Under the pieces are notes generated by a model that was not told the origin of the DNA, did no database searches, and saw only the letters and a list, made by a program, of their open reading frames with translations. From assembly GCA_964615995.1 (NCBI GenBank), contig CAZTSR010000003.1:64327-128326 (forward strand): a stretch of 64,000 nt of DNA, read 5' to 3'. The position numbers and the translations under genes were made by a program. Positions 3,580-13,547 of this stretch are shown here, in pieces; position 1 is the stretch's first letter, and each line of letters opens with the position of its first letter. Source of the DNA: an uncultured Bacteroidales bacterium (lineage in GTDB: Bacteria; Bacteroidota; Bacteroidia; Bacteroidales; UBA10428).

Positions 3580-3615
3580 CAAATATACGAATTGTGTTTC
3601 GTCAAATTACGAAAC
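3580..3615 (-). promoter_or_regulatory. candidate promoter (-7 box TATATTTG, 3580-3587 on minus) plus inverted-repeat operator GTTTCG-N8-CGAAAC (3596-3615)
   Basis: Exact match to the Bacteroidota TAnnTTTG -7 consensus upstream of the permease start. A perfect 6-bp-arm palindrome sits immediately upstream and is a plausible ArsR site. Confidence 0.45.
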
Positions 3616-3946
3616 AAAGTGAAAATTTTTAAAAAAAATATAAGTAAATAGTAATCAATTACAAAAACCACAAATTATCTTTCCCGAAGGGTGGTATTTC
3701 GTGCCCTTCGAAGTGAGGGAACATTTCGGCTGCTAATTCGGGATATTTGATTGTTATGGGTAAATTCCGTTAATGAACGGTGATTGGTAAGCGACAGCCT
3801 TTCAGGAATGAAAAAGATATCCCTATTTAAAAGCAGATTTCCTATGATGCTCTTTCACTGTGCAATATTGGTTGAAAAAAATACGAAACCAAAGATTCAA
3901 ATCAAAGACAAAAAATATAGCTTTAAAGTTTATAAAAATTCCGCCC

Positions 3947-6658
3947 ATGTTTTTATTTCCAGTTACTTTAAAAAAAGTCCAAAAATGGGCTTCCAAAGGT
4001 AAATATGATTTGTTAATTGAAGTCCTTGGTGACCCCAAGTGTAAAACTGACATAAAAATCGAAACCATTCATCTACTTGGCAAAAAGAAAGTAACAAAAG
4101 CCATTCCTGTTTTAACCGCCTTGATTCATGAGTTGCCTCTTAGAAAATCATTAATTGCCTGTTATGGAAATTTAAGGGACACCAGGATATATGATACGTT
4201 AATTAATCTGCTCCATCACGACAAAGAAAACATACCTGAAATTGTTCGTGATTTAGAGAATATCCATTATCCCGATGCAATACCCGTCCTGTTAAAGATG
4301 GTTGCCAGTGGTTCAGCAGATGATGCTATCCTTCATTCGATTAAGGTAATAGCCGACAAAAATGAAAGCTACGATGACATACTGAAAAGTTTCACTCCGG
4401 ATCAAACAGAATCCTGCTTAATTTTGCTTTGCAAAATATTGGCCGGTAATGATAAAAAAGAAATACAGACCAAACTCAATGCGTATATTTTTACAGAAAA
4501 TGCGCTGTTCAGGAAAGAAATAGGTCTTGCAAAAAAAACCAAAAAAGAAAATCAATGGGCTGACTGGCTGAAAGGTGATGCCGACGATTTCCGGCGACTG
4601 GCTGCTTCAGATGAGGAATATGTTTATGATATGCTCATGGATCAATATGAAAAAGGCCATAAAATTTTGGATCCATATCAGGATGTTTTTGCAAACCATA
4701 TTATAAGGATGGCTGATGCTGCATTCAGAGAAAGAGCGCTTTGTTTTATTGAAAAGCATAAGCTGGTTAGGGCGGCTGCAGAACTGGTGAATCATATCAG
4801 TAATTATGATGGCCAAATTCGGTTGAGAATAGCTAAAACACTGTCTGCTTTAGATATTCATGATTATAACGACGTGATAAAAGGAGATACACAGGATTTT
4901 ATACGTTTATTCGATCATAATCCCAGGGAAGGCGGAAATTTACTTAAGGAAATGGTGACGCACACATTTCCGCTTACCAAGGAAGAGCTGCAAATCTTAG
5001 CTGAAATTATTTCCGATTTAGGGAAGTCAAATAAACCAGAAGCTGTTGATGTTTTAGTTGCCGGTGTCAATGAAACATCATCAATAGGAGAAAAATGCTT
5101 TGACGCTATTCAGCAAGCCGGCAATGAAAGATTTGATGCAATTCTTTCCGGTATGTTGATCTCTTATAAAGACAAAACACGGATAAAAGCAGCAAAAAAG
5201 CTTGATCAGTTAGGAGATCATCGATGGGTGGATATTGTAAAGGGTGATGACAATGATATTGAACGCCTCTGTCTAGCTGGTTGTAAAGCTGCAATCGACA
5301 AAGAAATTATTTGCCTTGGAATGGACAGATATATTCGCGAAAAAGCAGCCCATATATTGTTGAAGGTATTGAAGAACAATCCCCAGGATGTTCTGAACTG
5401 GTCAGATATCGGGAAATCGATAACAACGCCTCATAAGGATGTACATGAAGACAATCATTCAGATCATGAAAGGACATCGGATTGCCATAGTGATAACGAA
5501 GGCCGTTCCATACATGAGGATTTGGGTTTTAACCTGACTTTTAATAATGAACAGCTTAAGTTTTTCAATGAGGTCGATTACGCTGACAGACGCAAGAAGA
5601 ATACCATTTCTGAAGAATATCTCATCGAGATGTTTGAGTCAAATCAGGATTCTTTAAGAGAGGATATGTTTGAAGATGCCAGACAGTTCTCCTCGGAAAA
5701 GCTGATTGAAGTAATAGGCAGGCTGGTTGAAAAAGAGGGTAAATATTCAAAAAAAGCATTTGAATATCTTTTGCTGCATAAGGTTGCCGCTTTACCGTAT
5801 TTTATAAAATCATTGTTATCCTATAGAGATGAAGACATCATCAGGGAAATTATTGCTGCCGGAGCACAGTCTTATAAGCTTCTTATTGATTTGTTATCTG
5901 AAAGCAAAAAAGTTCAATATGTAATTGAAGTGTTGGGGTTACTTGGCAATAAGCAGGCCATTGATCATATATTTCCTTATTTAACTTTCCGCGATGATAA
6001 AGCAGTCAGAATGAGTTCTGCAGGTGCTATGATCCATCTGGGTGAAACAGATTGGAAAGATATAATATTTGGAGATGATGATGATTTTGAGCGACTTGTA
6101 TTGAAGTGCGATGTCAGGTTGCTGAGTTGGTATAAAACCTCTTTTGTTGACATTCAATTTAGTTATCTTAAGGTACTTCTTGCCAAAACTTTAGCCCGGT
6201 TGGGTGAGAAGGAATTAGCAGGAGAAGTCAGAGAGCTGTTGATATCACCAAATCATAACGTTACAGATGTTGCCGGGGCCCTGGCCATGATTGACAGTAC
6301 CGACTGGAGTAAAGTAATCCTGGGCAACGAATCGGATTTTAAACGAATTGCCGGGGTTTGTAATATAGATGCTGTTAAAGTTTTGCTTGTCTTTTTAAAA
6401 GCCGCTGAAAGGGGAACCAGGGCAGCTGCAGCAGAAAGTCTGATCTCTATCGCAAAAGTCAATTTTTCTGTTGTTCAGGATGAATGGAAATCTATAACAG
6501 CCACTATCGCTCAGAAACACGAGGACAGCAGCAAACATGTGAGTCACTGGGCCGAAACACGATCGGGTGATTGTCATTCCGATTATATTTCACATACAGA
6601 TACCGGACTGGGTTTGACAATCTCAGATGATTTAGATTTGCGGGCTGATGACAAATAA
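3947..6658 (+). CDS. large HEAT (PBS-lyase-like) repeat protein, internally duplicated, each half ending in a His/Asp/Cys-rich DCHSD module
   Basis: Track ORF is 3860..6658 (932 aa). The ATG at 3947 (MFLFPVTLKK) is preferred because the first 29 codons are low-complexity and promoter-like. HEAT-like repeats are present (KAIPVLTALIHELP, DAIPVLLKMV, LGNKQAIDHIFPYL). The ORF overlaps the downstream rSAM gene by 11 nt. Confidence 0.8.
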   Translation: MFLFPVTLKKVQKWASKGKYDLLIEVLGDPKCKTDIKIETIHLLGKKKVTKAIPVLTALIHELPLRKSLIACYGNLRDTRIYDTLINLLHHDKENIPEIVRDLENIHYPDAIPVLLKMVASGSADDAILHSIKVIADKNESYDDILKSFTPDQTESCLILLCKILAGNDKKEIQTKLNAYIFTENALFRKEIGLAKKTKKENQWADWLKGDADDFRRLAASDEEYVYDMLMDQYEKGHKILDPYQDVFANHIIRMADAAFRERALCFIEKHKLVRAAAELVNHISNYDGQIRLRIAKTLSALDIHDYNDVIKGDTQDFIRLFDHNPREGGNLLKEMVTHTFPLTKEELQILAEIISDLGKSNKPEAVDVLVAGVNETSSIGEKCFDAIQQAGNERFDAILSGMLISYKDKTRIKAAKKLDQLGDHRWVDIVKGDDNDIERLCLAGCKAAIDKEIICLGMDRYIREKAAHILLKVLKNNPQDVLNWSDIGKSITTPHKDVHEDNHSDHERTSDCHSDNEGRSIHEDLGFNLTFNNEQLKFFNEVDYADRRKKNTISEEYLIEMFESNQDSLREDMFEDARQFSSEKLIEVIGRLVEKEGKYSKKAFEYLLLHKVAALPYFIKSLLSYRDEDIIREIIAAGAQSYKLLIDLLSESKKVQYVIEVLGLLGNKQAIDHIFPYLTFRDDKAVRMSSAGAMIHLGETDWKDIIFGDDDDFERLVLKCDVRLLSWYKTSFVDIQFSYLKVLLAKTLARLGEKELAGEVRELLISPNHNVTDVAGALAMIDSTDWSKVILGNESDFKRIAGVCNIDAVKVLLVFLKAAERGTRAAAAESLISIAKVNFSVVQDEWKSITATIAQKHEDSSKHVSHWAETRSGDCHSDYISHTDTGLGLTISDDLDLRADDK

Positions 6659-9011
6659 CCTGATTTCCTGTTCGGCCCGTATTCATAGTAATCCTCATTT
6701 TATGGTGATTCCCAGTAATGCATGCAATGCTTCATGCCATTATTGCTTTGGACCCAACAAAGGAAGAATTATCAATGAAGAGCAATTCAGTGAAAATATC
6801 AGTTTTATTGAAAAGGTCGTTCAAACTACACAACAAACCAAGGTACACATAACATTCCATGGAGGTGAGCCGCTGATGGCTCCGCTGAATATTTGGAAGA
6901 GCGGATTAAAATTAATCGACCGGACTTTCAAAACCCAAAAGCTTAAGCTTCAAATCCAGAGTAATTTATGGAACCTAACCCAGGAACATTGTGCTTTATT
7001 CAGAGATTACGGTATTTCATTCAGCACCAGTCTGGATGGACCTGAGGAAATAAATGATCTACATCGTGGGAAGGGCTATTTTTCCAAAACGATGAACGGT
7101 GTTGATCTTTTGCGGAAAAACAATATGAAGGTCGGGTCAATTGCCACTTTCTCTCCAAAAAACATGGACAAGATAAATGAAATCTTTACTTTTTTCGTCA
7201 GACAAAGGCTTTCATTTGCTGTACATGCTTCATTGCCACCGCTTACCGGTAAGGCAAATTCTTTTGTTTTGAGCCCTCAACAATATGGAACATTGTTATG
7301 TGACCTGTTCGATTTGTATGTGCCCAACCGCAAGTATATCAGTATTTCATCCTTTGATCAGCTTTGCCAATCAATCACGGATAACAGGGGCAAAGTATGC
7401 ACATTCAAGGACTGTACAGGCTCTTTTCTGGCCATTGATCCGGAAGGAAATATATATCCCTGTCAGCGGTTTTCAGGGAACCCTGATTATTGCCTTGGAA
7501 ATGTAATTGATCCGGAGATAATCAGCCGCTTACAGAATAACCCTGTTACCAACAGCCTGGTTGCTCATCATAAACAAATAAAAATTGAATGTAAGGATTG
7601 CGATCATATGAACTATTGTAAGGGTGGGTGTTATTATAACAGCAAAGCATCAAAGGAAACCAAAGACCCTTATTGCGAATCGTATAAAATGATTTTTAAC
7701 AAAATCAGGAATAGGCTGATCGGAGAGATGAGTAGTCCTGATAATTTCCGGGAAATTGTGGATAAACCTTTTACCAGCAATGGGAATCCGCTGCTTCGGA
7801 AAGGTCCTGTTATTGAACTTACGCAAAAGCCGCATCCGGTGACAAAAGCGATCAATTCGGCAAAAATTATTTCAGTTGTTGCCTTATCGCGATCAGCTAC
7901 AATAGACGAGGCCCATCAATCATTGAAAGACCTGGGCATTGGCGTTGAAAAGTCATACCTTGAAAATCTGAAAGAGCAGTTCAGCAGGAACCATTTCAAA
8001 TTAAATAACTGTTACATTCATACGACCTTTAATTGTCAGTTAGCATGCACGCATTGCTATGCAAAAGCCGGAAATTCTTCCGGCGAATCCATGCGTATTT
8101 CCCAGATAGCTGACATTTTAATGCAGGTGAAGGAAAACAAATTCAGACAGGCCATAATTACCGGTGGTGAACCGCTGATCTGCGACAATCTGGATGGTTT
8201 TCTGAACCGGATGATTGAACTTCGCCTGCAAATTGAGCCTGTAATTATTGTGCTTAGGACGAATTTATCCATGCCATTGTCAGACGGATTACTAGCTAAA
8301 ATAGCCCGGGCATTTCATCAGATTGTTGTAAGTGTTGACGGAGACAAAGAATATCATGAAAAGCGGAGAGGAGAAGGAACATACTCCAAAGTAACTGAAA
8401 ACATTCAAAGATATCAGCAGGTTATTCAAAATGTAAATAAGCCTGCTGAGTTATCAATAGGTTGTGTAATGCCTGCTGATGACATTCATGGGGGACCAGG
8501 TCAGAGTGTCCGTGATTTTGCTTATGCCAAAAACATAAGAAGAGTGAGGTTTAAACCACTTTTGCCGATAGGGAGAGCTGCTGACACATACACTTCCCTG
8601 GTTTCTGAGGCTCTGGATAGTTATGTTGACAAGGAAGAAGCCTTAAAGTATCCGTTTAAGCCATTTAAAACCTGTGGTATTGGTTATAATGTATACATAG
8701 AGCCAAAAGGCCATGTTTTTCCCTGTTATGCGTTTCACAAACCTCATACCTATATTGGCAATGTATTTGAATCGGGCTTGAACGGGATAGTGATGAGCGA
8801 GGCATTCAGGACTTTATCCGAACATAATGTGGATACCAACTCAAAGTGCAAAAAATGCGGATTTCGCTATTTATGCGGAGGCGCATGCCGTGCCTGGGGC
8901 CGGAATTTTACGCAGTATGATCTGGATGCACCGCCTCCCGATTGTGAAGGTCTGTATAAAAAGGCCGAAGATATCTATACGGCTGCGCTGGACTATCTGA
9001 AGAGCAGGTAG
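6648..9011 (+). CDS. fused tandem radical SAM/SPASM-domain enzyme (two complete maturase modules)
   Basis: 787 aa. Module 1 has CNASCHYC (6723-6746) and SPASM motif CKDCDHMNYCKGGC (7590-7631). Module 2 has CQLACTHC (8034-8057) and SPASM motif CKKCGFRYLCGGAC (8847-8888). GGEPL motifs occur in both modules. Confidence 0.9.
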   Translation: MTNNLISCSARIHSNPHFMVIPSNACNASCHYCFGPNKGRIINEEQFSENISFIEKVVQTTQQTKVHITFHGGEPLMAPLNIWKSGLKLIDRTFKTQKLKLQIQSNLWNLTQEHCALFRDYGISFSTSLDGPEEINDLHRGKGYFSKTMNGVDLLRKNNMKVGSIATFSPKNMDKINEIFTFFVRQRLSFAVHASLPPLTGKANSFVLSPQQYGTLLCDLFDLYVPNRKYISISSFDQLCQSITDNRGKVCTFKDCTGSFLAIDPEGNIYPCQRFSGNPDYCLGNVIDPEIISRLQNNPVTNSLVAHHKQIKIECKDCDHMNYCKGGCYYNSKASKETKDPYCESYKMIFNKIRNRLIGEMSSPDNFREIVDKPFTSNGNPLLRKGPVIELTQKPHPVTKAINSAKIISVVALSRSATIDEAHQSLKDLGIGVEKSYLENLKEQFSRNHFKLNNCYIHTTFNCQLACTHCYAKAGNSSGESMRISQIADILMQVKENKFRQAIITGGEPLICDNLDGFLNRMIELRLQIEPVIIVLRTNLSMPLSDGLLAKIARAFHQIVVSVDGDKEYHEKRRGEGTYSKVTENIQRYQQVIQNVNKPAELSIGCVMPADDIHGGPGQSVRDFAYAKNIRRVRFKPLLPIGRAADTYTSLVSEALDSYVDKEEALKYPFKPFKTCGIGYNVYIEPKGHVFPCYAFHKPHTYIGNVFESGLNGIVMSEAFRTLSEHNVDTNSKCKKCGFRYLCGGACRAWGRNFTQYDLDAPPPDCEGLYKKAEDIYTAALDYLKSR

Positions 9012-9346
9012 TTTGCATTGAGTCCATATGATATTCCAAAGCATACATGAGCCGCCTAAGATCCCTTAGGGGCTTATTGTATGGCTCAGGCCCTGCGGCT
9101 ATGAGCTTAAGGAGCTCCCGCTCGCGTCTATCTATGTTTTCTTCTTTTTGTTATTCAGTCAATGGTTAGTATGGAGTTTCTTTTACAAGTACAGGAAAAA
9201 TAGTTCTGGAATTAAAATAAAAGATTGATTAAATTATACATGTTACATTCGATTTCAAAACTTTAATAGTCAAAATTCCTAACTCATATCGTAATAGTTG
9301 AGCTAAAATGAGGATATTTGCACTCTTTTTTTAGTTTTATGATTTT

Positions 9347-10705
9347 ATGGCAAGGAAAAGCAGTCCTCATAATTTAGGGACAGAAGGAGTTGGGAAATTG
9401 CTGTTACAGTATTCGGTTCCGGCAATAATTGCAACAGCAGCAGCCTCTCTATACAATATTATCGATCGAATTTTTATTGGGCAGGGAGTTGGTCCCCTGG
9501 CAATTTCAGGCCTCGCCCTTACATTCCCATTAATGAATATTACTGCAGCTTTTGGTGCTATGGTGGGAATTGGTGCAAGCGTTATGGTCTCCATCAGGCT
9601 GGGCGAACACGACAGAAAAGGCGCAACTATGATTCTTGGTAATGCTGTAATGTTGAATATTATACTCGGTATTGTTGTTGCTCTTGTTACCTTTATTTTT
9701 CTTGAACCTATTCTCTATACTCTAGGAGCAAGCAAGGATACCTTGCCTTATGCCAAAGAATTTATGCAGATTATTTTGGCAGGTAATGTTTTTGCTCATC
9801 TTTATCTTGGTATGAACAGTATAATGAGGGCGTCTGGATACCCTAATAAGGCAATGTCCACAACACTCATTACTGTAATAGTTAACCTTGCTCTGGCTCC
9901 GGTATTTATCTTTGTTTTTAAATGGGGCATTCGCGGAGCAGCATTGGCCACTGTTATTGCTCAATTGATTGGTACTGCATCAACAGTTATTCACTTTTCA
10001 AAAATTAATAGTTTCGTGCATTTTCTTCCTGGATACATGAGGTTGAAAAGGGCAATAATTCGGGATATCGTTTCAATTGGAATGTCGAACTTTTTCATTC
10101 TTATAAGTGGTAGCGCTGTATTTATAATAATGAACCTTAGTCTTAAGAAGTATGGTGGAGATTATGCAATTGGTGCTTTTGGAATCATTGGCAGTATTGC
10201 AAATCTGGTGGTTATGATAGTAATGGGATTTAACCAGGGAATGCAACCAATAGTAGGATATAATTTTGGCGCACGAAAAACACCTCGTGTTATAAAGGCT
10301 TTTAAACTGACTATTTTTGCTGCGACATGTGTTACCAGCTTTGCATTTTTGCTTGCAGAAATTTTCCCAAAACTCATTGCAACAGCCTTTAATAATAATA
10401 GCGAACTTATTAATTTGTCGGTCACAGGTATGAGGCTAAACCTTATGATGTTCCCTGTTGTTGGCTTTCAAATAGTAACATCAAGTTTCTTCCAATCAAT
10501 TGGTAAAGCAAAAATCTCTATTTTTCTTTCACTTACAAGACAGGTTTTGTTTCTTATCCCAGCAATCTTAATTCTTTCTCATTTCTTGGGATTGAAAGGT
10601 GTTTGGCTCGGTGGCCCTATTGCCGATTTTTCTTCATCCCTATTGACTTTATTGGTTCTTCAATGGCAAATAAGAAAATTACATAAGACAGTTAACTCCT
10701 TGTAA
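9347..10705 (+). CDS. MATE-family efflux transporter
   Basis: 452 aa, 12-TM-like. The N-terminus LLLQYSVPAIIATAAASLYNIIDRIFIGQGVG is typical of the MATE/NorM family. Confidence 0.9.
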   Translation: MARKSSPHNLGTEGVGKLLLQYSVPAIIATAAASLYNIIDRIFIGQGVGPLAISGLALTFPLMNITAAFGAMVGIGASVMVSIRLGEHDRKGATMILGNAVMLNIILGIVVALVTFIFLEPILYTLGASKDTLPYAKEFMQIILAGNVFAHLYLGMNSIMRASGYPNKAMSTTLITVIVNLALAPVFIFVFKWGIRGAALATVIAQLIGTASTVIHFSKINSFVHFLPGYMRLKRAIIRDIVSIGMSNFFILISGSAVFIIMNLSLKKYGGDYAIGAFGIIGSIANLVVMIVMGFNQGMQPIVGYNFGARKTPRVIKAFKLTIFAATCVTSFAFLLAEIFPKLIATAFNNNSELINLSVTGMRLNLMMFPVVGFQIVTSSFFQSIGKAKISIFLSLTRQVLFLIPAILILSHFLGLKGVWLGGPIADFSSSLLTLLVLQWQIRKLHKTVNSL

Positions 10706-10890: not shown

Positions 10891-11235
10891 ATGATTACGA
10901 CTGAATTACTCAAAGGTTCATTAAAGTCAATTGTACTGAAACTGCTGGCTGAAAACGGACGGATGTATGGTTATGACATTACCCGTAAGGTAGAAGAAAT
11001 AACCAATGGCAAAATTAAGCTCACGTATGGCGCCTTGTATCCTGTGCTTCATAAACTCGAAGTGGATGGGGCAGTGATTACGGAAGCAGAAAATTATAAC
11101 AACCGAACACGGATCTATTATAAGCTCACTCCTAAAGGTAATGGATTTGCAGTGGAAAAGATTAAAGAATTACAGGAATACCTTGAAGTAATGGCATTGG
11201 TACTGAAATCCAATCCTGAACTTGGGGTTGAATAA
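10891..11235 (+). CDS. PadR-family transcriptional regulator
   Basis: 114 aa. Contains YGYDITRKVEE...GALYPVLHKLEVDG, the PadR winged-helix signature. Confidence 0.9.
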   Translation: MITTELLKGSLKSIVLKLLAENGRMYGYDITRKVEEITNGKIKLTYGALYPVLHKLEVDGAVITEAENYNNRTRIYYKLTPKGNGFAVEKIKELQEYLEVMALVLKSNPELGVE

Positions 11236-11273: not shown

Positions 11274-12599
11274 ATGAATTACATTTTGAATATATCGAAT
11301 ATCGAGTTCATCAAAAAAGAGGTGGCTGGTTCCGGACTTACCTATTCTCATTTGATGGATGAACTGATAGATCATGTTTGTTGCGATGTTGAACAGGAAA
11401 TGCGCAATGGCTTATCTTTCGCAAAGGCCTACGAAATGGTAAAAACCAAAATTGGCATGGAAGGTCTGGAACGCATACAACATGAGACCCTTTATTTAAT
11501 TGATAAAAAATATCGAATTATGAAAAATATCATGAAGTTTTCAGGATTGGCCGCGCCCATCGTGCTGGCCTTTGGTTCACTATTTAAAATTCAGCATTGG
11601 CCGGGTGCCGGTGTTATGTTTGTATTTGGCTTCTTTTTGCTTTGTTTTATATTCCTGCCCAGCGCCATTTATGTCAGCTATAAGGAAGTCAGCAACTTTA
11701 CAAGAAAATGGACACATATTGTGGGCTTTCTTGGAACCTTTTTCATTTCAATCGGGTTCTTGTTTAAAGTCCAGCACTGGCCTTTTGCAGGCATTGCCTT
11801 AACCATTGGCATTATAGTAAGCTGTCTGCTTTTTTTGCCCATGGTGCTCCGAAACCAGCTGAAGGATCGAAACAATCCTGTTCCAAAGTTTGTCTTTGTA
11901 ATTGCATTTGCCGGATTCATGGGAGATCTGGCCGGATTTTTACTCAAAATTATGCATTGGCCCGGGGCAGGAGTTATTATGATAGCCGGATGCATTTTGC
12001 TTGTAATTGTTGCATTTCCATTATATGTATATCATGCTTACAAAGATCGTTTGCACATTGCTAACAGCTTTGTATTTATTCTGATTGTGATGATATGGTA
12101 TATCATTCCGATAACTCTAATCTCATTAAATCTTTCAAGGGAAGTTTTGAGCAATGTATATGAACAAAATCAGTCATTGAAAAATGATCTCGAATTTCTG
12201 GAAGAGATCAATCTCGTCACGGTTGAGGGCATAAAGGACAATCAATCTGTATATATTGTTAATGATCAATCAAGGAGCCTGATGGAATTCATCGGAGAGA
12301 TGAAAGTTAAATTACAAGATCATAAAATGCCGGATAGTGTTGAAATGATTCAATTGACCAACCGGGTTAATGCATATGAAAGTCAATTGATGTCTTTAGT
12401 AAATGATGAAAAATACCGTGCAGTTATTAGCCGGACACTTGAAGAACCTTCAGGTTTAAGAGATCAGCCATTTGATAATCCTGATTTGCTTCTGAATCAT
12501 TTAATATTTCTTCAAATGAATATCGGGATAGCTGAACAAACCGCTTTAAAGCATTTACAGATGAAAAATAGTCAGGCAATCCAGGCAATCAACAAGTAA
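11274..12599 (+). CDS. membrane protein with three 60-aa GldL-like TM-hairpin repeats and a GldM-like helix/periplasmic tail
   Basis: 441 aa. FKIQHWPGAG, FKVQHWPFAG and LKIMHWPGAG motifs begin at 11583, 11763 and 11943, exactly 180 nt apart. A later LNLSREVLSNVYEQN segment resembles the GldM N-terminal LNVSKEVL helix. Confidence 0.8.
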   Translation: MNYILNISNIEFIKKEVAGSGLTYSHLMDELIDHVCCDVEQEMRNGLSFAKAYEMVKTKIGMEGLERIQHETLYLIDKKYRIMKNIMKFSGLAAPIVLAFGSLFKIQHWPGAGVMFVFGFFLLCFIFLPSAIYVSYKEVSNFTRKWTHIVGFLGTFFISIGFLFKVQHWPFAGIALTIGIIVSCLLFLPMVLRNQLKDRNNPVPKFVFVIAFAGFMGDLAGFLLKIMHWPGAGVIMIAGCILLVIVAFPLYVYHAYKDRLHIANSFVFILIVMIWYIIPITLISLNLSREVLSNVYEQNQSLKNDLEFLEEINLVTVEGIKDNQSVYIVNDQSRSLMEFIGEMKVKLQDHKMPDSVEMIQLTNRVNAYESQLMSLVNDEKYRAVISRTLEEPSGLRDQPFDNPDLLLNHLIFLQMNIGIAEQTALKHLQMKNSQAIQAINK

Positions 12600-12611
12600 A
12601 ATCATAAAGAA

Positions 12612-13547
12612 ATGAAAAACAAAATATATTATCTCGGAATATTTTCAGGAATAGTAACCGCATCTGGCTGCATTTTTAAAATTATGCACTGGCCGGGGGC
12701 AGGAGTATTATTAACCATTGGATTATTATTTCTATCGTTGCTTTTTCTTCCTGTTGCCATTGCAAACATGGTCAAAATGGAGAACGACAGGAAACTTAAG
12801 ATTTTTTACATCCTGACTGCCATTGTTATGTCTTTTAATTTTTTAGGAGCCTTGTTTAAAATAATGCATTGGCACGGTGCAGGTATTATCATGATGATTG
12901 CTATTCCTTTGCCGTTTGTTGTTTTGTTACCTGTCTGGGTATATTCCAATGGAGCAGTTAATAAGATCAATTGTAAAAATATCCTGGCTGTCATGTTCTT
13001 CTTTGCATACTTTGCAGCGATATCAAGTGTACTTGCACTCAGTGTATCCAAAAGAGTAGTTGAAGATTTTGATACATCCGCACTTATTGTACAGGAAAAA
13101 ACGATGACATTAAAGGAGAATACAGCACTGGTTTCAGGTTATTCTGAGATAAATAATCCGCTAAGCCATGAAGCAGAAAGACTTTGTAATAAAATTGCAG
13201 ATGTGAAAAGCTTGATTCTTAAAGGCGGCCAACAGGAATTATCGAGGAAGCATTTTGTATACCCGGATGTAAAGCCGGTGATTGAAACCCGGTATCTGAC
13301 CGAATTAAAAACAGAAATTATGAATTTCCGCAATCTGGTTCAAAAGCAGTATGGATCAGAGAGTCGGATTTACAAGTATGTTGAAGAAACTTTTACGGTT
13401 TATGCCGATAACGCAGATGATGTTCGCTGGGAGGACGCCTGGTTGAATAAAAACATCATTGCCTCAGCTATAGAAAGTCTGAACCTTTTGGAATTCAGGG
13501 TGAGATTGGTAGTGTTGGCGGGTCTTAGCGAATCGTCACAAATATAG
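12612..13547 (+). CDS. paralogous membrane protein with two GldL-like hairpin repeats and a GldM-like segment
   Basis: 311 aa. FKIMHWPGAG begins at 12675 and FKIMHWHGAG at 12855, 180 nt apart, followed by LALSVSKRVVEDF. Confidence 0.8.
   Translation: MKNKIYYLGIFSGIVTASGCIFKIMHWPGAGVLLTIGLLFLSLLFLPVAIANMVKMENDRKLKIFYILTAIVMSFNFLGALFKIMHWHGAGIIMMIAIPLPFVVLLPVWVYSNGAVNKINCKNILAVMFFFAYFAAISSVLALSVSKRVVEDFDTSALIVQEKTMTLKENTALVSGYSEINNPLSHEAERLCNKIADVKSLILKGGQQELSRKHFVYPDVKPVIETRYLTELKTEIMNFRNLVQKQYGSESRIYKYVEETFTVYADNADDVRWEDAWLNKNIIASAIESLNLLEFRVRLVVLAGLSESSQI

Follow-up and report, generated by a model that had tools for sequence, protein, structure and literature searches.

A two-gene cassette on a Bacteroidales contig

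The window analyzed here, a 64,000-nt stretch of a contig from an uncultured Bacteroidales bacterium (CAZTSR010000003.1), carries on its forward strand two adjoining genes: one for a fused two-module alpha-solenoid protein of the HEAT/PBS-lyase type (903 aa, 3947..6658), each module of which ends in a His-x-Asp/Cys tail, and one for a fused double radical S-adenosylmethionine (SAM)/SPASM enzyme (787 aa, 6648..9011). Both were delimited by a scan for open reading frames (ORFs) and by Pfam, together with homologues for the first and NCBIfam models for the second. The HEAT frame is open from a GTG at 3860 (3860..6658, +), and the ATG at 3947, which yields 903 aa, is likely the true start, because the database proteins P0001 and P0002, matched end to end at 100% and 89% identity, share this start and length. 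An initial reading of this DNA made without database searches (hereafter the sequence-only reading) had described a HEAT ORF of about 900 aa overlapping the radical-SAM ORF by 11 nt, and the coordinates agree: the enzyme's ATG lies at 6648 and the TAA of the HEAT gene at 6656-6658, giving the overlap ATGACAAATAA (6648..6658, +). This overlap is plausible rather than certain, as it hinges on the choice of start codon, NCBI's call for an identical enzyme (P0004) being 769 aa long with a start 18 codons further 3′. A 51%-identical orthologue is annotated with the identical 11-nt overlap, and in other relatives the spacing ranges from -7 to about 50 nt, tight spacing being the rule.

The solenoid assignment of the HEAT protein was supported by PF13646 (HEAT_2; 67.9 bits, cutoff 27.7) and PF03130 (27.7 bits, gathering threshold 20.9), and its AlphaFold2 model is an all-alpha solenoid of helix-turn-helix repeats. 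NCBIfam equivalog models for the bilin lyases CpcE/F and for NblB gave only 25-40 bits against cutoffs of 300-330, and the likeness to bilin lyases is generic to this repeat type. The sequence-only reading had taken the protein for a tandem duplication, which holds in part: the two halves are homologous, but they can be aligned only in the final ~110 aa (28% identity, E 9e-9), a stretch that takes in a single repeat unit and a helix together with the tail. At the locus of a 48%-identical enzyme (L007), two separate adjacent genes for proteins of 615 and 362 aa, each terminated by a tail, occupy the same position, and because module 1 of the window protein best matches the first and module 2 the second, the window protein is a fusion of two paralogous tail-bearing proteins and not a recent duplication. 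The two-tail fused protein is rare, with only two full-length representatives (P0003 and P0130) emerging when 1.84 billion representative proteins were searched exhaustively with HMMER.

The same protein also carries five copies of a secondary family motif, GDxxDFxRL (copy 1, GDADDFRRL), at 4574-4600, 4883-4909, 5243-5269, 6071-6097 and 6323-6349 on the forward strand. In its wider form, (W)xx[IL]xxG[DN]xxD[FYI]x[RK][LI], this motif also occurs in tail-bearing proteins of at least six other taxonomic groups, is missing from some family members, and has a background of 7 matches per 1.85 million six-frame residues.

Two different radical-SAM/SPASM modules in one chain

The enzyme contains two complete radical-SAM/SPASM modules, as had been read from the sequence at the outset, and the full set of cluster-binding Cys residues is present in both. 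The N module (aa 1-372, 6648..7763, +) resembles the anaerobic sulfatase maturase anSME and the TIGR04083 family; it has a CX3CX2C motif (CNASCHYC, aa 26-33, nt 6723-6746), eight auxiliary-cluster Cys (C251/256/272/315/318/324/328/343, nt 7398-7676) and a SPASM CX2CX5CX3C motif, CKDCDHMNYCKGGC, at aa 315-328. An all-helical linker (aa 373-452, 7764..8003, +), conserved across the family, leads to the C module (aa 453-787, 8004..9008, +), an orphan SPASM radical-SAM domain with its own CX3CX2C motif (CQLACTHC, aa 463-470, nt 8034-8057) and a seven-Cys SPASM motif (C676/693/734/737/743/747/766, nt 8673-8945) that includes CKKCGFRYLCGGAC at aa 734-747. The Pfam Radical_SAM, SPASM and Fer4_12 models each matched two stretches, with 119.9 bits for PF04055 and 58 bits for PF13186, and TIGR04085 scored 50.8 bits on the C module (cutoff 27). 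Across 20 aligned homologues, the 15 SPASM Cys and the three Cys of the second SAM cluster are invariant, while C26, C30 and C33 are conserved in at least 90%. The two halves share only 20% identity and belong to different subfamilies.

The AlphaFold2 model of the enzyme (predicted local distance difference test score, pLDDT, 84.6; predicted template modeling score, pTM, 0.81) has confidently modeled radical-SAM barrel folds. Foldseek against the PDB returned anSME (template modeling score, TM, 0.80-0.83 on the target), the triceptide synthase ChlB (0.76), CteB (0.65), TigE and SuiB. Each of these matches spans one half of the enzyme (query TM at most 0.40); hence no fused double enzyme has been solved. 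The linker does not show, in the model, the canonical fold of a recognition element (RRE) of the pathways for peptides made on ribosomes and modified after translation (RiPPs).

The search against NCBIfam radical-SAM/SPASM models, proposed with the sequence-only reading, placed the N module but not the C module. The former passes TIGR04083 marginally (326 bits alone and 373 for the whole enzyme, cutoff 300), and its nearest models after that, all below their cutoffs, are DynA, anSME, PapB, YhhB and CbpB; the latter passes no cutoff, its best match being StsB with 88 bits against 625. In the NCBI annotation pipeline (PGAP), the enzyme is named only as 'TIGR04083 family' or 'radical SAM protein'.

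Conserved His-x-Asp/Cys tails predicted to be disordered

Tail 1 of the window protein (aa 494-532, TPHKDVHEDNHSDHERTSDCHSDNEGRSIHEDLGFNLTF; 5426..5542, +) is internal, with 370 further residues after it, whereas tail 2 (aa 856-895, QKHEDSSKHVSHWAETRSGDCHSDYISHTDTGLGLTISDD; 6512..6631, +) is C-terminal; they score 60 and 71 bits, respectively, with the tail hidden Markov model (HMM) described below. Both are predicted to be disordered: the AlphaFold2 model of the protein has pLDDT below 50 and no secondary structure at exactly two places, aa 480-529 and 858-903, which are the tails. Each contains one copy of the DCHSD motif on which the sequence-only reading had focused (aa 512-516, 5480..5494, +; aa 875-879, 6569..6583, +), in which a Cys is directly followed by an H-x-D triplet. 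Orthologues with an overall identity of 51% have invariant tails, which are the most conserved part of the protein. Eight of its nine H-x-[DE] triplets fall inside them, and the pattern is not due to chance, with five triplets against 1.39 expected from shuffles of the same composition in one tail (p 0.001) and three against 0.92 in the other (p 0.04).

For a wider view of the family, we built the tail HMM from six-frame translations of loci around double radical-SAM homologues. Tail statistics were taken from an exhaustive HMMER search run with the full-length alignment: its top 150 representatives were scored locally with the tail HMM, and 84 of them carry a total of 88 tails. This replaced a word-index search of a 5.8-billion-protein database with a 42-tail alignment, which returned a single match (P0124), the tails being too short and variable for that method. 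Family tails follow a common order, namely an amphipathic helix, [PA]-H-x-D, zero to three more HxD/E triplets, then [SG][SG]-D-C, x0-6 and H-x-D, and after a further x2-6 the end H-x-D-x-G-[IL]-G-hydrophobic-x-[FI]-P. The preceding helix is of a W..I.. type, or LIL.QR..I in other clades, and there are two divergent end types, '..RFPP/FKP' and 'YxYFxLD'. The best-conserved element is H-x-D-x-G-[ILVM]-G: G[ILVM]G is present in 88% of tails, with an HxD just before it in 67 of 77. There are 3.2 HxD/E triplets per tail on average (2-7 H-x-D triplets), Cys is present in 92%, 'DC' in 56%, and C-x(0-6)-H-x-D in 70 of the 88, with a single Cys per tail. The earlier description of DCHSD as an invariant core holds among the 51%-identical orthologues but not family-wide; since HxD comes immediately after the Cys in only 8 of 88 tails, DCHSD is the clade-specific form of a wider 'Cys then HxD' core. 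No Pfam or NCBIfam model matched the tail.

What precedes the tail varies, while the tail and its helix remain constant. Tail-bearing ORFs are mostly 166-1571 aa long, and their N-terminal parts consist of HEAT_2/PBS repeats, of a repeat that is not in Pfam (Parabacteroides sp. PF5-9) or, in Methanomassiliicoccus, of little else, as an ATG-started peptide of 54 aa located 11 nt upstream of the enzyme gene is the only convincing short tail ORF. Because this peptide and the non-HEAT repeat proteins bear the same tail, the HEAT array is unlikely to be a recognition element, and the proposal in the sequence-only reading that it serves as a recognition scaffold is not supported.

Several further features were noted in tail-bearing proteins. 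The terminal sequence '...[LTRKP]-D-F' occurs ~8-12 residues past GIG..FP in 49 of the 84 tail-bearing representatives (P0139-P0275; loci L009, L011, L012, L023 and L093) and is missing from the window's Bacteroidota clade; it may serve as a further signal, for recognition or for processing. One subfamily (P0143, P0149, P0155, P0162, P0163, P0165, P0175, P0211, P0241, P0244 and P0267; L092 3892-4662) has a zinc ribbon, CPNPxCGKxL...GRxxxCPxCG, between the tail and the terminal DF. At L007, a 43-codon stop-to-stop ORF (9805-9933) with a good tail (...SAKCMTHYDTMKHADTGIGLEIPPELKV) lies just upstream of the double radical-SAM gene and after a gene for a CoA-binding-domain protein (compare P0131 and P0142). 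Having no plausible start codon, it was not counted as a short precursor and is probably the remnant of a third tail-bearing gene.

Co-occurrence of tails and enzyme across anaerobes

The co-occurrence of the two proteins, which the sequence-only reading had put forward as a check, was examined in a census of loci around double radical-SAM homologues, using one genome per species plus metagenomes, all six-frame translated. The enzyme search gave 337 matches, and among the 120 listed nearly all are 700-900 aa long. When all ORFs within 6 kb were clustered by BLAST for 38 loci, only two conserved families emerged, the enzyme itself (38/38 loci) and the solenoid/tail proteins (35/38 loci, 59 ORFs). 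Other recurrent clusters were mostly short ORFs within or antisense to the enzyme and tail genes, and no protease, exporter or other partner recurred in these 38 loci. Significant tail-HMM matches in census loci are all on the enzyme strand, usually less than 200 nt from the enzyme gene and never farther from it than about 6.6 kb, and mostly end 0-4 aa from the ORF stop (8-22 aa in three ORFs), the internal tail of fused proteins excepted. Single-module methanogen TIGR04083 genes served as a control: about 39 loci around them (~700 kb) gave zero tail-HMM matches, and so did the remainder of the 64-kb window; further divergent tails were found by eye among the neighbors.

Viewed from the solenoid side, the enzyme is adjacent for six of the seven proteins tested. 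The double radical-SAM gene is immediately downstream in all three of P0001, P0002 and P0003 (100%, 89% and 51% identity), with differing flanks, and P0124, P0180 and P0141 lie in radical-SAM-led operons with one to four tail proteins. The HEAT-tail protein and the double radical-SAM enzyme thus constitute a conserved cassette. The number of tails per locus varies from one to four with the enzyme remaining double (L012 and L093), which contradicts the earlier idea that two maturase modules face two target motifs; module numbers do not co-vary.

Cassette loci were found in Bacteroidota, Hydrogenedentota, Pseudomonadota, Armatimonadota, Planctomycetota, Nitrospirota, Desulfovibrionaceae, Coriobacteriales, Clostridia, Chloroflexota, Acidobacteriota (Bryobacterales), Verrucomicrobiota, Rhodothermales and Methanomassiliicoccus. 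One bearer, Parabacteroides sp. PF5-9, has a genome labeled as that of a named strain and not as a metagenome-assembled genome. A neighbor-joining tree of the enzymes separates the three tail end types by clade, and inside the clades taxonomy is mixed. Tail type tracks enzyme clade and not taxonomy, and enzyme and tail are inherited and transferred as a unit.

The Methanomassiliicoccus locus L044 (9971-11575) has an enzyme of 534 aa consisting of the N module, the linker and the terminal SPASM part, with the second radical-SAM core deleted, and the adjacent 54-aa tail peptide is without Cys. This combination is a single case and may be a coincidence or an assembly artefact. Around the single-module methanogen TIGR04083 genes, ~57-aa zinc-ribbon-like ORFs (CxxC...CxxC) were seen in 15 of 36 loci, mainly in Methanobacterium (for example L058 11185-11361, -, and 12213-12389, +), and are possible partners or substrates of that family. 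In Methanolobus profundi (L069 8106-11275), a single-module TIGR04083 gene lies ~230 nt downstream of mcrA; the didehydroaspartate of McrA has no enzyme assigned yet (PMC7581889). Adjacency to mcrA occurs in one of about 39 methanogen loci, and a prediction of Asp dehydrogenation through this link was rejected.

Genomic context of the cassette

The window has the look of a Bacteroidota chromosome segment, with a G+C content of ~38% and genes for GldL-domain proteins, MnmE and DnaE. Downstream of the cassette are genes for a MATE transporter, a PadR regulator and two GldL-N-domain proteins (9347-10705, 10891-11235 and 11274-13547). The MATE gene, which begins 335 nt after the enzyme gene, had been read as apparently transcribed on its own, and it does not belong to the cassette: at the locus of the 89% orthologue (L001), the PadR and GldL-like genes come straight after the radical-SAM gene, which suggests that one lineage either acquired the MATE gene by insertion or lost it. 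As it is likewise not conserved across loci, we rejected the exporter as a cassette component. About 3 kb upstream of the cassette, L001 also has a group II intron-type reverse transcriptase (5607-7016, RVT_1 plus GIIM) with none at the matching place in the window. A promoter and terminator scan of 3600-9500 found sites no more commonly than in shuffles, the sigma-70 consensus used being unsuited to Bacteroidota, and an Rfam scan of the window gave no matches.

A proposed tail maturation system and its alternatives

We favor, with a probability of roughly two-thirds, the explanation that the two genes form a two-component, protein-scale (RiPP-like) maturation cassette in which each tail receives two radical modifications and the product stays a protein. 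The substrates would be the ~40-aa tails, predicted to be disordered, that the upstream alpha-solenoid protein bears, with the short amphipathic helix before each tail as the likely recognition element, and the 787-aa enzyme would bring two different radical-SAM/SPASM active sites to them on one chain. That a tail undergoes two different reactions, one per module, is proposed because tail number varies whereas the enzyme is double in every case, with halves that diverged anciently. Concerning the division of labor, the N module (anSME/ChlB/DynA-like) would most likely form a His-to-Asp C-C cyclophane on the HxD triplets, and the C module a Cys-centered thioether or oxidation. By analogy with characterized relatives, the candidate chemistries are a His-Asp cyclophane, a Cys-Asp thioether and formylglycine. 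Related radical-SAM/SPASM enzymes make His-based three-residue cyclophanes on HTK, HAA and HNR (PMC11499958). The modification may rigidify a His/Asp/Cys-rich element, for example a metal- or cofactor-binding site, on a protein remaining in the cell, and a cross-linked element of this composition suggests metal or cofactor binding. Since no protease or exporter is conserved and one window tail is internal, the product is most likely a modified intracellular protein; in the window, the fusion of two substrate proteins would place two tails on one polypeptide.

Several observations weigh against this explanation. One locus (L029) has a double radical-SAM gene but, over 10 kb to either side, no tail protein, and a 9.5-kb contig (L092) has two tail proteins and no radical-SAM gene; the census itself covers the best 80 of 468 genome matches and seven HEAT-side proteins. 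The AlphaFold2 model of the enzyme shows neither an N-terminal RRE nor an RRE-like beta-sheet domain. About 8% of tails are without Cys, so any Cys-dependent step is not universal. The models of characterized NCBIfam maturases score far below their cutoffs, so their chemistry is not transferable. Finally, His/Asp/Cys-rich disordered tails could bind metal unmodified.

This last possibility belongs to a broader alternative, in which the solenoid proteins are not substrates at all and instead act as scaffold or accessory partners, or as co-regulated, unmodified metal binders, with the enzyme directed at a small molecule or an unlinked peptide. The two discordant loci L029 and L092 speak for it, HEAT proteins are often scaffolds, and the tails have the composition of typical metal ligand sets. 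Nevertheless, up to four tail-bearing paralogues accompany one enzyme, the 54-aa peptide next to the Methanomassiliicoccus enzyme is a tail alone, the same tail sits on non-HEAT repeat proteins, and tail type co-varies with enzyme clade. Given also that the 38 loci have no other conserved neighbor to serve as substrate or pathway partner, and that close relatives of both modules are all peptide or protein modifiers, we consider it unlikely that the tails are bystanders.

Equally unlikely, in our estimate, is that the system comes down to anSME-type chemistry, with the N module not cross-linking but oxidizing the tail Cys to formylglycine, or by another two-electron step, and the aldehyde either serving as a protein-derived cofactor or being processed further by the C module. 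Among solved structures, the N module is indeed closest to anSME, both in sequence (4k36, E 1e-26) and in fold, TIGR03942 is its third-best NCBIfam match, anSME acts on whole proteins without an RRE, as would be the case here, and the single Cys is conserved in most tails. Yet the TIGR03942 score of 238 bits falls short of the cutoff of 349, and the cross-linkers DynA, PapB and YhhB score comparably. The sulfatase C/S-x-P/A-x-R motif is in neither window tail and no sulfatase gene is in the cassette, while the Cys-less tails of the family retain their HxD and GIG elements.

Least probable, and to our minds remote, is a classical secreted RiPP or peptide-derived cofactor, with the tail as core and the solenoid as a giant leader, the modified tail being cleaved and exported (e.g. 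by MATE) or released as a redox cofactor like mycofactocin or PQQ: a C-terminal core as in MftA and PqqA, the sole near-full-length NCBIfam alignment of the C module (mycofactocin maturase MftC, TIGR03962), the nearby MATE gene and a MacB-type ABC/HlyD/OEP set after the Parabacteroides sp. PF5-9 cassette speak for it, but MftC scores only 66 bits on the C module and 102 on the whole protein against a cutoff of 265, no protease or transporter is conserved in the 38 loci, the locus of the 89% orthologue is without the MATE gene, and tail 1 is followed by hundreds of residues.

Returning to the tail maturation cassette, a stronger version, which we hold more tentatively and at slightly less than even odds, is that it represents an unrecognized and widespread class in which one polypeptide with two non-equivalent radical-SAM/SPASM sites makes two modifications in an HxD...C...HxD...HxDxGIG tail, producing a new cross-linked element for binding a metal or cofactor on intracellular alpha-solenoid proteins of anaerobes in at least ten phyla. 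The chemistry might then include a His-Asp cyclophane not yet seen together with a Cys-based link. The architecture had not been recognized as a described system, and we likewise found no curated family or paper for the pairing: full-text literature searches on HEAT repeats with SPASM, two radical SAM domains, TIGR04083, and HEAT with a RiPP precursor returned no description. With its recurrence across many anaerobe phyla, the pairing looks like a widespread protein-modification system.

New cross-link chemistry in peptides comes mainly from radical-SAM/SPASM enzymes, and to our knowledge almost all of these enzymes that are characterized act on short secreted peptides. The cassette differs in that its maturase combines two modules, anciently diverged, in a fixed fusion, its apparent substrates are the tails of large intracellular repeat proteins, and its motif of repeated His-x-Asp and one Cys lies outside curated Pfam and NCBIfam models. 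Spanning Bacteroidota, Planctomycetota, Chloroflexota, Clostridia, Desulfovibrionaceae and Methanomassiliicoccus, the pairing offers a directly testable two-gene system for new post-translational chemistry, and, as many bacterial 'PBS-lyase HEAT-like' proteins lack an explanation, it may hint at what some of these do.

Comparison with known systems

Among curated families, TIGR04083 gives the best-scoring model for the N module, and some double enzymes carry its name in PGAP annotation. Genuine methanogen members score 664-688 bits and are single modules of ~380 aa, in contrast to the 787-aa window enzyme with its second module, and none of 36 methanogen loci has a tail-bearing ORF. In structure, the N module is closest to anSME (PDB 4K36-4K39), with which it shares CX3CX2C, two SPASM auxiliary clusters and the lack of an RRE, and anSME acts, as is proposed here, on a segment with a Cys in a full-size protein whose gene lies nearby. 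It differs from the window enzyme in being single-module, whereas here a second, unrelated radical-SAM/SPASM module is fused to a first that scores below the anSME cutoff, and in its C/S-x-P-x-R target, which the window tails lack.

The triceptide synthases ChlB (PDB 9GM3), YhhB, HtkB and HaaB are radical-SAM/SPASM enzymes of the same anSME-like clade, and their substrates have repeated aromatic-X-X triplets, including the His-first HTK, HAA and HNR (PMC11499958), to be compared with the 2-7 H-x-D triplets of the family tails. Cyclophane-synthase models are nonetheless far below cutoff (YhhB 158 against 445 bits, GrrM 122 against 310, FxsB 108 against 370, AmcB 122 against 425), and the cassette has two modules, carriers of 166-1571 aa instead of short peptides, and no protease or exporter. 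We know of no report of HxD as a triceptide motif.

PapB and QhpD are known for Cys-Asp thioether formation, and as SPASM radical-SAM enzymes that join Cys sulfur to Asp/Glu carbons they parallel the proposed Cys chemistry. PapB acts on CX3D-type motifs, comparable to C-x(0-6)-H-x-D in the family tails, and QhpD (with QhpC) modifies a protein subunit that is retained in the cell. The scores are again under the cutoffs (PapB, NF047865, 182 against 340 bits; QhpD, TIGR03906, 133 against 453), the tails have one Cys or, in a minority, none, and there is no amine dehydrogenase context here. In relation to RiPP pathways in general, several precursor paralogues per enzyme, which are typical of RiPP-like systems, and a conserved helix before the core are common ground; the large carriers, the absence of a conserved protease or exporter and of an RRE-like domain in the model set the cassette apart from a canonical pathway.

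The His-Xaa-Ser system, in which two radical-SAM proteins (HxsB and HxsC) act with a substrate (HxsA) of repeated His-X-residue triplets, is what we take to be the nearest conceptual analogue of a double radical-SAM enzyme paired with HxD repeats, judged by TIGRFAMs descriptions and HMM scores. Its enzymes are encoded by separate genes together with an additional HxsD, its repeat is His-X-Ser with no solenoid, and HxsB (TIGR03978) scores 137 bits on the window enzyme against a cutoff of 370. Overall, the kind of system, a SPASM radical-SAM enzyme with a cognate precursor, is already known, and the novelty lies in a maturase that is always double-module, in solenoid carriers of large size and in the HxD/Cys tail.

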